A DNA stretch of 64,000 nucleotides from an uncultured Candidatus Rokubacteria bacterium (GTDB taxonomy: Bacteria; Methylomirabilota; Methylomirabilia; Rokubacteriales; DASRDR01), in the NCBI GenBank assembly GCA_963805625.1, contig CAWDVE010000017.1, forward strand, positions 128,001 to 192,000. The letters run 5' to 3'. The notes beneath the pieces were generated by a model that ran no database searches, was not told the DNA's origin, and worked only from the letters and a program-made list of their open reading frames with translations. Numbering within the stretch: position 1 is the stretch's first letter; each line of letters opens with the position of its first letter. The position numbers and the translations under genes were made by a program. Positions 27,535-48,419 of this stretch are shown piece by piece.

Positions 27535-30500
27535 TCAGGCCGGCGCGTCGAGCGTCCGGGCGAGGGCTTCCGCGCGCTCTGCCCAGTGAGGGACGCGGAG
27601 ATCGACGAACCACTGGCGGGCGTGCTCCCAGTGCTGGGCTGCCGACGTCCTGTCACCCGTGGCGAGGGCGGCCTCCCCACGGTCCATCCACACCCGCGCC
27701 ACGTCGTAGCGCGCCTGGATCGCCTCGAACGTCGTTCCTGCTTCGTGGAGCGTCGCCATGGCCTCGGCCAGGGCGCCGGTCGCAAGCTGGACACGCCCGA
27801 GCGCCCGGAGCGCCAGGCCGACGCCGTAGGCCGAGCGGGCCGCGCGGGTGATCTCGAGCGCCTCCCGCGCGGTCGCGAGCGCCCGCTCGCGCCGGCCATC
27901 GAGGCGGTATGCGTCGGCCAGGAAGGCCGTGAACCAGCCCTGGAACTGCGGGAAGGGGAACGCGCCGTGCTGCTGAACCGCCGCCTCCAGGGCGGGCATC
28001 GCACGCGCGGCGTCGCTATGCTCGACGAACGAGAATCCGAGCCAGCCAAGTGCGACGGCGCGCGTGAGCGGGTCGGGAGCGACCGAGAGGCTCTGTTGGC
28101 AGGCCTCGATACCAGACTCGGCGTGACCGAGAGCTGTGTGGATGATGCCCGTGGCGCAGAGCGCCGAGGCCTGGAGCTGACGGTTGCCGCCTGCCTCGCC
28201 GATGATCAGGGCTCGCGTCTCGGCCTCGAGCGCGGCGCCGAGCTCTCCGAGCTGGGCATGGTTGAGCCCGACGACCCAGTGAGCCTGTCCGATCCACCAC
28301 TCGTCTCCCGTGCTCTCGAGGCATGTGAGCGACTCCAAGGCGTGCTTGATACCCTCCGCCGCCCGTCCGGACAGCGGGGCTTCCTGCGCGAGCACGTAGT
28401 GCGCCTTGCCGCGCGTTGCCGTGTCACCGCTTCGCGTGGAGTCGGCGATTGCGCGTTCGGCGCTCTCGATTGCCCGCTCGCGGTCACCGAGGAAGAGGTG
28501 CGTCCGGGCGAGCAGGAAATGGTTGTAGGCCGACATCGCGGCATCGTCCAGGCGGTCCAGCGAGGCCTTCCAGTGGAGTAGCAATCCCAAGGTTTCGCGG
28601 AACCGCCCAAGGTGGATCAGCGTCGAGGCTTTGCGGAGCACGAGGCGGAGGCGCCGGTGATCGCGCACGTTGGCGGGGAGTCGCTCAACGTGGGCGAGCG
28701 CCTCTTCCAGAAGGCCTAGCGCCTCGGTGTGCGCGTAGCCCCGCGCCGCTTTCTCCGCCATGCGCGAGAGGCACCCGACGGCGCTGTCGGCCTGATCGGT
28801 GCGGGCGTAGTGGTAGGCGAGCCGGTCGTCCGCCTCTTCGAGGCGCCCCTCGTAGAGCCGCTCGAGGGCGCGCGCGGCCGCGGCGTGCAGCGCCTGGCGC
28901 TGGGCCACCGGCAGGCTGTCGTACACGACCTCCTGCGTCAGGGCGTGCTTGAACACGTGGACGGACTCGCCGGGGCGCGTCTGCTCGTAGACGAACTCGA
29001 GGCGCGTGAGCTCGCGGAGCTGCTGCTGGATATCCCCCGGGCCCCGCCAGACGGCCTGGAGGAGCCGCAGCGGAACCTCCCGGCCGATGACGGACGCCAG
29101 CCGCAGTGTGTCCTTCACGTCCTCGGGCAGGCGGTCGATGCGTGCCCGCAATGCCTCCTCGACCGTGTCAGGCACGGCGATTCCACCGCCCGCGTCGGGC
29201 TCCTCGCTGACGGCCCGGCACAGCTCCTCGAGGAAGAAGGGGTTCCCCTCCGCCTTGCTGAGAATCGCGGGGGCCAGTGCCTCCTGCGCGGAGCCCATCA
29301 CCAGGAGCGACTCGACGATTCTCTGGCTGTCGCCCCGCGAGAGGGGCTGGAGTGCGAGCTGCGTCGCATATGACTTGTCCATCCAGGGCGGGCGGTAGCC
29401 GGGGCGGTACGTGAGGAGCGAGAGAACAGACGCGCCCGCCGCGGCCTCGATCAGCGAGGCGAGGCACTCCTCGGAGGAGCCATCGATCCACTGAAGGTCC
29501 TCGCACACGAATACGATCGGCCGCTGCCGGCTGCCCCGGAGACCCATTTGACGGAGCGCGTCCACCGTCCGAGCCCGGATGGCATCGCGGCTCAGCATGC
29601 TCAAAGGCTCGGTCCCCTCCTTCATGCCCAGGAGGTGGTGCAGGTACGGAGCCCATTCTTCCGGCTCCATTTCGAGGTCCTCCAGCCCCGCCCGAACCTT
29701 CCGCGCGATCGACGCCGGGCTGTCCCCCTCGGCAATCCGGAGGCTCCGCCGGAGGATCGCGATCACCGGCAGATAGGGAACCGCGCTCCCGTACGAGAGA
29801 CAGTGGCCCTCAACCCAGACGGCGCGCTCGCTCCGAAGGCTCCTGCGGAGCTCGAGAAGGAGCCGCGATTTCCCGATCCCGGCCTCGCCCACGATGCCCA
29901 CGACCTGCCCGTGTCCGTCGGCGGCGGCGGCGAAGCGGTCGCGCAGGAGCTCGAGCTCCCGGCTGCGGCCGGCCAGCGCGGTGAGCCGGCGGCCTGATCC
30001 GAAGCCAGCGCGCTCGACCCCGTCCAGCCGGTACACGGGGCCGTCGGCGGGGGCCGGCGCTGGGAGCGGCACCAGCGTGAATCGACGGTCGAGGAACGGC
30101 GCGGCCGTTTCCGAGACGACGGTCCGGTCGGGATCGGCCCGCAGGACGAGGCCTTCCAGCGCTTGCCAGGCACGGCGCTTGCCGTCGAGCTCGAGCCGGA
30201 TGTCCCGGCCCGCGTACCCCACCAGGAGCTGCGTGACGTGGATACCCAGCCGGATCGTGATCCACGGCGGCTCGGTCCGCCGCTCGCGCTCGACCGCCTT
30301 GCGGATCGCGACGGCCGCGTGCGCGGCCCGCCGGGTCGCATCCTCGACGGGCTCGAGGCCGAAGGTGGCCACGATGCCACTCGGGCCGAGGTCTTCCATC
30401 CGGCCGCCGAAGCTTCGCGCCTTCTCGATGAGGGCTTCGATCAGGCGGCTCGGGTACAGGCGGCCGTCGTCGGACGGCGGGCCGTCGATCACCGCGCGAA

Positions 30501-47691: not shown

Positions 47692-48419
47692 CGAGAGAGA
47701 CAGCCCGGCGGGCGGGTCAAGCGCTCCTCTGGTGGGGTGTCGTCGGCGGGCCGATTCTCGCGTGGTGGCCCGGGGCGCTGCGGCTGCCCGCGCTCTGGGC
47801 GGTCGTCGTCCTCGGCGTGCTGGCGAACGCGCTCCAGCCGTCCTACCGATTCCGGGACACCGCCCGGTCACCGGAGGATGGCGGCACATTCCGTCAGATC
47901 ATGCTCACCGTCTATGGGAGCCAGGCGGCCGCACTCGTCGAGCTCGTCCTCCGCCGGCCCGCGGGGCTGCCCTTCGACGCGCTGGGCATGGGCGCCCTCC
48001 TGGCGATGGGCGCGGGCCTCGCCCTCCGGACGTGGGCGATCGCCACGCTCGGCGGCTGGTTCACGCTGCGCGTGGCCATGGAACCCGCGCAGCGCCTGGT
48101 TGACGAGGGGCCGTACCGCCTGATGCGCCATCCGAGCTACGCGGGAGCATTCCTCGCCTTCGTCGCGAGTGCGGTCCTGCTGCGCGCGTGGGTGGCGACG
48201 GCCCTGGGCGCGGTGGCCCTCTACTTGGCCTTCCGGCGCCGGATCCACCACGAGGAGCGAGTGCTGGCGGCGGGCCTGCCTGGCTACCGGGCCTACATGA
48301 CGCGGACGGGTGCGCTTTTGCCGCGTCTCGGACCCTGGTCCGCCCGGCGGGCGCCGGCCACCGAGCGGGCTAGTCCCGGAAGTGGCAGGCCACCCGGTGG
48401 CCGGAGGCGCCCTCCTTGA
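47688..48419 (+). CDS. Isoprenylcysteine carboxyl methyltransferase (ICMT/PEMT) family membrane protein
   Basis: [32 protein letters not shown] motifs; GTG overlaps the GH3 stop. Confidence 0.87.

Follow-up and report, generated by a model that had tools for sequence, protein, structure and literature searches.

What does a STAND-type sensor control when it is fused to a sigma-54 activator, and do the operons that it faces belong together? The question is raised by two long genes on the minus strand of a 64,000-nucleotide stretch of DNA, here called the window, from an uncultured Candidatus Rokubacteria bacterium (genome G000; contig CAWDVE010000017.1, positions 128,001 to 192,000). The original prediction described a giant gene combining a bacterial enhancer-binding protein (bEBP) with STAND and tetratricopeptide-repeat (TPR) domains, present twice, each copy lying divergent to an enzyme operon (units 1 and 2). 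It proposed that an immune-receptor-like sensor is thereby wired to a lipid or signal-molecule pathway. We find that the two regulators, A1 and A2, are a real and well-conserved bEBP variant, and that the lipid cargo is a lineage-specific use of it, partly decayed here. Our favoured reading, held with somewhat better than even confidence from sequence comparison, is that the sigma-54 motor of A1 and A2 is held off by a C-terminal pseudo-cyclase-STAND-TPR tail until a cytoplasmic ligand arrives, upon which each would drive the lipid-modifying operon that it faces.

Both giant genes are indeed present, and their products share 53% identity:

27535..31605, minus strand: regulator A1, 1356 aa; sigma-54 AAA+ domain (GAFTDA loop), Fis-type helix-turn-helix (HTH), pseudo-cyclase, STAND and TPR domains, in that order (Pfam and motifs; start set by relatives)
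39232..43362, minus strand: regulator A2, 1376 aa; same domain order as A1 (Pfam, motifs and model)

Pfam recovers Sigma54_activat (197 bits; cut-off 20), AAA_lid_14, HTH_8, AAA_16 (97 and 105 bits in the two proteins; cut-off 32.6) and TPR in each, with TPR_MalT slightly below its cut-off; the NCBIfam kinase/cyclase fusion family TIGR03903 also matches both, below cut-off (E 1e-79 and 3e-84). Relatives of A1 start at the methionine at 31605, and a 1495-aa version of its open reading frame was rejected, as the N-terminal extension runs back through the promoter and is missing from relatives. Among 115 family members the core positions are 78-100% kept; these comprise both Walker motifs of both ATPases (GEAGIGKS and EDLHWxD in the STAND domain), the GAFTDA loop and the HTH recognition helix, and the R-finger region of the sigma-54 AAA+ domain is also conserved. 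A1 and A2 thus have the features of a bEBP: an AAA+ domain with Walker A, Walker B, a GAFTGA-type loop and an R-finger region, a Fis-type HTH, a -24/-12 promoter with an upstream enhancer, and rpoN in the genome. The GAFTDA loop is compatible with an active motor because it is identical to that of the NorR G266D variant, which, according to the accessible part of PMC2941729, activates transcription and escapes repression by the GAF domain. On sequence grounds, RpoN- and ATP-dependent activation of their promoters by A1 and A2 is likely.

C-terminal to the motor, both proteins are built like STAND NTPases of the MalT/PH0952 type, with a P-loop nucleotide-binding domain that has intact Walker motifs, followed by helical, winged-helix and TPR domains. 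The predicted model of A2 (residues 376-1380; pLDDT 86.8) has PH0952 STAND-TPR as its best fold match (6MFV, E 6e-16), then Avs3 and then Apaf-1; PspF structures were matched as well. By analogy, ligand-driven ADP/ATP exchange and oligomerisation may operate in A1 and A2. The predicted architecture stands for the sigma-54 motor, HTH, STAND and TPR domains, but it overlooked a degenerate class III cyclase domain between the HTH and the STAND domain. A family profile of this middle domain matches the cyclase domains of cyclase-STAND-TPR proteins (E 1e-18 to 1e-5) and a Pfam-positive cyclase (L305, E 1e-9), which establishes its homology; we term it a pseudo-cyclase because both metal-binding aspartates needed for catalysis are replaced family-wide (VLFAD to LLRAx, GDG to PTG). 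The whole cyclase-STAND-TPR block aligns end to end with cyclase-AAA_16-TPR proteins, and some 19 long cyclase- or kinase-STAND-TPR genes occur in G000; these genes are the likely source of the regulator tail. Purifying selection acts on all domains (dN/dS 0.07-0.34 overall; 0.12-0.34 in A1 and 0.07-0.28 in A2).

A sigma-54 box lies opposite each giant gene, as predicted, together with enhancer and integration host factor (IHF)-like sites, the latter scored against the IHF consensus:

31654..31693, plus strand: unit 1 enhancer region, two CCCCACC copies (31666, 31687), core CCCCCACCCAAATYGGGG; weak fit to the family dyad
31728..31740, plus strand: unit 1 IHF-like site; 7/9 consensus positions
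31759..31774, plus strand: unit 1 sigma-54 -24/-12 box; conserved in orthologues
43448..43490, plus strand: unit 2 enhancer; family dyad at -102 (43448-43466) and palindrome CCCACC-C-GGTGGG (43478-43490)
43519..43531, plus strand: unit 2 IHF-like site; 6/9 consensus positions
43550..43565, plus strand: unit 2 sigma-54 -24/-12 box; pattern search

The 7.27-Mb genome contains 113 copies of the strict -24/-12 pattern, the 64-kb window three; since it is so rare, two boxes exactly facing the two regulators are not a matter of chance. The third strict box in the window, at 54875 on the plus strand, lies away from both units. The paired CCCCACC sites of the original prediction are present upstream of both boxes, but only as the right half of something longer. 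The family enhancer is a dyad, TGNTCAA-N3-TTGACCACC, which 51 of 71 promoters carry between -81 and -77; the first CCCCACC of unit 2 (copies at 43460 and 43477) is its right half, and the best dyad site falls at -101 to -103 in all eight held-out unit 2 promoters (scores 3.3-16.3; 5.5 in the window). In unit 1 the dyad scores are 5.1 and 2.4, with a null 95th percentile of 4.1; the core, with at most small changes, is found in the window and in 3/3 orthologous unit 1 promoters compared, which do not keep the second CCCCACC. We rejected CCCCACC as a self-standing site, there being 13 plus 9 copies in the window and 1891 in the genome.

The same arrangement is conserved across the family, which bears out the original pairing of a STAND-TPR-fused activator with a divergent sigma-54 promoter. 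Our locus sample consists of 110 of the highest-scoring matches (137 weaker ones were left out) minus three with fewer than 400 bases upstream. A divergent box is present at 67 of these 107 loci versus 6/107 on the opposite strand, with a background of 3.4% in Markov-resampled sequence and 1.5% in random genome DNA. When a TGGTAT variant is allowed, a rule chosen after inspection of the data, 80/107 loci are boxed versus 1/19 motor-less cyclase-STAND genes and 2.4% of random sequence. IHF-like matches of at least 7/9 occur in 44/80 family promoters versus 10/2000 random sequences. Promoter and neighbour counts treat loci singly and are not independent trials, because the loci are kin, with several per genome. 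RNA run X20 covers only a small share of the stretch.

Of the order's 183 genomes, 131 have the fused N-terminal half (E<=1e-110); the pseudo-cyclase domain alone is found in 127 of 251 genomes of the phylum, only three of them outside the order; the window's genome has six regulator paralogues, four with a divergent box. At 89 of 106 loci the first called gene is divergent, and these genes form 29 clusters. Tabulated in this way, the neighbours are not random, nor are they mainly lipid genes, and lipid output as the general role of these regulators is not upheld: at 42/106 loci the first divergent gene encodes a small TPR-like protein, and the LPG-TM gene is first at ten. Further targets include GDSL lipases, fatty-acid hydroxylase, MlaC, SBP56-SCO, TauE, Usp, a TRAP component, ADH and TPR proteins. 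One paralogous regulator in G000 (L321, G000:C14:98000-114000), whose frame ends at 1101 aa, faces an operon of SBP56 (methanethiol oxidase-like) and SCO.

What the two regulators of the window face is more specialised. Unit 1 consists of two genes:

31808..32281, plus strand: small membrane protein, 157 aa, constant partner of the radical S-adenosylmethionine (SAM) gene
32278..33663, plus strand: B12-binding radical SAM enzyme with DUF4070, 461 aa (Pfam B12-binding, Radical_SAM and DUF4070)

The first of these had been called a "4-TM" protein; it is a membrane protein, but a crude hydropathy scan gives only two strong segments, and no Pfam or NCBIfam family was found for it. Of 18 verrucomicrobial loci, 15 have a gene of this transmembrane (TM) type immediately before the radical SAM gene. 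The Pfam matches bear out the B12-radical SAM assignment. The enzyme is nevertheless below every NCBIfam cut-off (best HpnJ, 71.5 vs 577.6) and is thus assigned neither to HpnP, HpnR or HpnJ nor to any other named B12 radical SAM enzyme; a PDB sequence search returned AprD4 only. Relatives at 70-75% identity are labelled Verrucomicrobia/Planctomycetes. The gene adjoins acyl carrier protein (ACP) and FabF genes in G019 and G078 and FabF in G105, and some relatives lie with ACP/FabF, Aas-like or GDSL genes.

The gene families predicted for unit 2 are all recognisable, but two of its members are broken:

43669..44763, plus strand: LPG_synthase_TM (flippase-like) membrane protein (Pfam and NCBIfam search)
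44792..45379, plus strand: PAP2_3-family membrane protein (Pfam)
45393..45899, plus strand: heme-oxygenase-like (HO-like) diiron protein, broken by an in-frame loss of 61 codons at about 45786
45887..47029, plus strand: enolase-superfamily (MLE subgroup) enzyme (Pfam MR_MLE; KxK and metal ligands kept)
47042..47691, plus strand: GH3 acyl-amide ligase pseudogene (Pfam GH3 pieces; intact relatives 564-572 aa)
47688..48419, plus strand: ICMT/PEMT-family membrane methyltransferase (Pfam and NCBIfam search)

The 61-codon loss removes the conserved glutamate/histidine metal-ligand stretch of the HO-like protein, whose identity rests on intact relatives (Haem_oxygenas_2); a PDB sequence search with it gave only weak CADD matches (E 0.025). 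The GH3 gene has a deletion of about 1.04 kb at about 47199-47212, a TAA stop at 47390 and a frameshift near 47480. Assembly error was rejected for these lesions: those in GH3 are spanned by contigs assembled from two studies (runs X1 and X3), and an X3 contig bridges the HO-like deletion junction with zero differences, although contig depth is 2.6-7 and one of these runs may come from the source sample itself. Because GH3 is a pseudogene and the HO-like protein is without its ligand stretch, the sequence indicates that the GH3/HO branch is dead in the window's strain. Dipeptide epimerases and N-acyl amino acid racemases use two catalytic lysines, on strands 2 and 6. The enolase-fold protein has arginine instead of lysine on strand 6, as do all 21 homologues (21/21), and is below all NCBIfam cut-offs; we therefore rejected a racemase or epimerase role, and a one-base dehydratase or cycloisomerase is likelier.

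The unit 2 GH3 protein is, by sequence, a distant OlsH relative. OlsH is the best NCBIfam match of an intact relative, and the nucleotide-binding motifs are present in intact relatives. An Ols-like function for unit 2 is weakened by the score of that match, 106 against a cut-off of 620, and by finding no OlsI-type alpha/beta-hydrolase in unit 2; hydrolases do flank more distant GH3 homologues. The 34 metagenome GH3 loci include FabF in 10 and enolase in 14. At L217, L219 and L220 we observed ACP, two FabF-like, alpha/beta-hydrolase, GH3, DUF1638, methyltransferase and DUF362 genes, from their content likely an OlsH/OlsI-like amino-lipid cluster tied to fatty-acid synthase. At L199:6381-8924 and L208, GH3 is fused to or beside a fatty-acid hydroxylase, with the same enolase family adjoining and the HO-like gene replaced.

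The suggestion that the two units are halves of one pathway holds as an evolutionary link but not as an obligate pathway. The units are directly adjacent in G035, G021 and G043, where the insert that parts them in the window is missing, and A1 and A2 pair as sisters in trees built under a mixture model (SH-aLRT 88) and under LG+G4 (95). Their nearest relatives drive LPG-PAP2-HO-enolase-GH3 (L206; same order in G004), LPG-PAP2-unknown-GDSL (G023) and unknown-GDSL-radical SAM-TM-ACP-FabF (G019) operons, and at L204_5966 the radical SAM gene is a 50-codon remnant only. The units look like a split regulon, because other lipid-branch regulators drive mixtures of both gene sets. A second link comes from a STAND-less sigma-54 activator of about 510 aa, which faces HO-enolase-GH3 in 10 of 12 family-f2 loci and TM-radical SAM in two f8 genomes and 3/18 verrucomicrobial loci. 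This activator (L189:9009-10559, L340:4576-6117, L413) has an N-terminal domain without a Pfam match, and in its f2 promoters the -12 element is atypical and a TGTAC-type motif lies upstream.

Several results weigh against tying the two gene sets closely together. The trees were quick searches without bootstrap, and TM-radical SAM lies beside the ~510-aa activator in only two of the nine f8 genomes that have it. GH3 occurs at 1 of the 18 verrucomicrobial radical SAM loci, most of which have neither a sigma-54 activator nor a canonical box, and the radical SAM gene was found at 0/34 metagenome GH3 loci, many of them on short contigs. In G105 and G078, the STAND activators that drive the radical SAM gene are not part of the lipid branch. 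G017 is without A1 yet keeps the TM-radical SAM promoter, so adjacency need not mean one-to-one control. Both regulators with both full gene sets occur in only 3 of the 12 genus genomes in which the locus was seen (G033, G035, G021), and the regulators of G033 are frameshifted. Elsewhere in the genus, G017 has lost A1 and the HO-to-ICMT genes, G007 unit 2, G013 A1 and G011 both, and most unit 1 cargo is lost in G043 and G039. The units are not an obligate pathway, because they are lost independently and the enzymes are found elsewhere beside a STAND-less activator. We read them as one loosely shared regulon split by duplication, and the STAND sensor as not intrinsic to these enzymes.

The alternative that A1 and A2 are a general-purpose sigma-54 switch, with the operons as unrelated cargo beside tandem duplicates and no common product, is unlikely. 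It draws strength from the independent losses in G017, G007, G043 and G039 and from the mixed content of the 29 first-gene clusters at the 89 divergent loci (SBP56-SCO, TauE, Usp, TRAP component and ADH included). It gains too from the count outside the genus, where 13 genomes have the GH3 orthologue, seven the TM protein and one both (many genomes being incomplete), and from a radical SAM enzyme that is 70% identical to verrucomicrobial proteins but 55% to those from other genera in its own order. Unrelated cargo does not, however, explain why sister-branch regulators (G004, G023, G019) drive overlapping mixtures, why a second activator family is common to both sets elsewhere, why both operons of G078 hold the same 275-aa uncharacterised gene, or why one verrucomicrobial locus has TM-radical SAM and a GH3-family gene in one run.

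The commonest regulator target suggests another alternative. The small TPR-like protein (150-200 aa, seven predicted helices; e.g. L256:1823-2293, L148:3245-3799, L319:4564-5555) is present at 47/107 loci, 45 of which carry a promoter, and has four strong copies in the window's genome. Often two copies lie in tandem, one membrane-anchored or exported and the other cytoplasmic: among 30 such pairs, an N-terminal hydrophobic segment is present in 25 first copies and 0 second copies. Matches in the Atlas are Rokubacteria clusters without a name. Control might then resemble that of PspF by PspA, the small protein acting in trans on the STAND-TPR tail as a docking or feedback site, with the window copies served by other loci; the AAA+-HTH unit without an N-terminal sensor and its divergent target do resemble the pspF-pspA arrangement. 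We consider this improbable, since the small protein is in none of the lipid-branch loci, has no Pfam family and gave only generic helical-repeat matches in fold searches.

An immune receptor wired to transcription, its TPR domain sensing a phage protein and inducing envelope remodelling or a signal molecule, is very improbable: it can appeal to the fold likeness to Avs3 and Apaf-1, to several paralogues per genome (six here) and to the interspersion of defence and non-defence STAND clades (available parts of PMC13581612), but the best fold match is the MalT homologue PH0952, PADLOC gave no STAND-type match at the locus (only RtcR/PspF-type AAA-HTH and weak TPR/mad8), the family locus has a fixed place among housekeeping genes (between opp, ABC-F and homoserine dehydrogenase), and the TPR region is under purifying selection like the other domains (dN/dS 0.15-0.26) and is not diversifying. 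Neither a defence STAND profile, nor a defence-island context, nor a toxic effector was found. "NLR-like" is a structural description only, with no sign of an immune role, and the "immune-receptor-like" label does not extend beyond structure.

The remaining features lie between the units:

33664..38696: strain-specific 5-kb insert, missing in G035, G021 and G043 and different in G033
33693..33728, plus strand: 3' fragment of tRNA-Glu(CTC) near the insert's left end, 97% over 37 bp to the full tRNA-Glu on contig C11
38697..39230, minus strand: GNAT acetyltransferase, directly downstream of A2, conserved genus-wide

Within the insert are part of a collagen-repeat open reading frame, a fragment of a multicopper oxidase and, at 36403-37563, the gene for a 386-aa protein that matched nothing in Pfam, NCBIfam or PADLOC. 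ARAGORN found no tRNA in the window; at least nine similar tRNA-Glu fragments occur elsewhere in the genome, which suggests that they are repeated integration scars.

Taken together, these results are consistent with the following course of events under our favoured reading of a gated sigma-54 motor. The tail would derive from the cyclase-STAND-TPR proteins, of which this genome has many, and would have lost cyclase activity. Ligand binding to the TPR domain would open an ADP-bound STAND domain, as in MalT/PH0952, and the freed AAA+ domains could then hexamerise on the enhancer, reach the sigma-54 promoter through a DNA loop over IHF and open it; that the STAND domain gates the motor, in which direction and with which ligand, is an argument from analogy. 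Duplication within the genus likely split an older lipid-remodelling regulon. In unit 2, GH3 would make an N-acyl amino-acid lipid, which the HO-like and enolase-fold proteins would oxidise and rearrange and the ICMT-like enzyme methylate, LPG-TM and PAP2 moving or transferring the lipid in the membrane; in unit 1, B12 radical chemistry may alter an acyl chain. The two halves are separately dispensable. A bolder version, in which an NLR-type ring of STAND domains, responding to a membrane-lipid or protein ligand, serves as the template for the sigma-54 hexamer and the operons form a new oxidised, methylated amino-lipid pathway split as a two-input gate, is possible but doubtful.

Known sigma-54 activators are controlled via N-terminal sensor domains, trans inhibitors or PRD domains. 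A C-terminal STAND switch, if true, would be a new control mode for them and would offer a direct test of STAND oligomers driving another AAA+ ring. Most genomes of an uncultured but abundant order of soil bacteria encode the family, and because its promoters follow a predictable layout (enhancer, IHF-like site and -24/-12 box), it is amenable to tests in a laboratory host. What the regulators face here points to a GH3-based amino-lipid pathway that has not been described and to a B12 radical SAM/membrane-protein pair outside named families.

A literature search, mainly of openly accessible texts and abstracts, found no description of the fusion or the operon, in line with the original statement that no characterised example was known; the available parts of PMC7159879, PMC12316311 and PMC13581612 do not describe the fusion, and seven supplementary files of PMC13581612 gave no match to Sigma54, PF00158, HTH_8 or Rokubacteria. 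Among known systems, Avs/NLR-like proteins share the STAND and TPR fold with A2 (Avs3 being its second-best match), but A1 and A2 are without toxic effector, defence context or a PADLOC STAND match. The cyclase-AAA_16-TPR proteins, presumably those labelled SWACOS, differ in retaining the cyclase aspartates, whereas A1 and A2 are fused to a bEBP and lie beside sigma-54 promoters (as only 1/19 of those genes do). In the accessible text of PMC12493201, OlsH of Singulisphaera acidiphila is a proven amino-lipid ligase that uses ATP and a fatty acid to form N-acyl ornithine, and its operon also holds a hydrolase and a methyltransferase. Unit 2 shares with this OlsH/OlsI/OlsG pathway a GH3 acyl-amide ligase and a methyltransferase in one operon, but adds HO-like, enolase-fold, PAP2 and LPG-TM genes and sigma-54 control, and is broken here. 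MalT carries a C-terminal LuxR HTH and works with sigma-70, and the PspF locus, resembling those of A1 and A2, has a divergent sigma-54 target with an enhancer and an IHF site. Like MalT and PH0952 (6MFV; PMC6468293, accessible text), A1 and A2 have a STAND core followed by a TPR sensor; unlike MalT, they have a sigma-54 motor at the N-terminus as their output, and a pseudo-cyclase lies in between. Like PspF/HrpR-type bEBPs (type Ic of Francke et al.), they have an AAA+ domain and HTH without an N-terminal sensor, but they carry about 1000 residues C-terminal to the HTH with a second, STAND-type ATPase, which none of the four bEBP architectures in the accessible part of PMC3162934 has.

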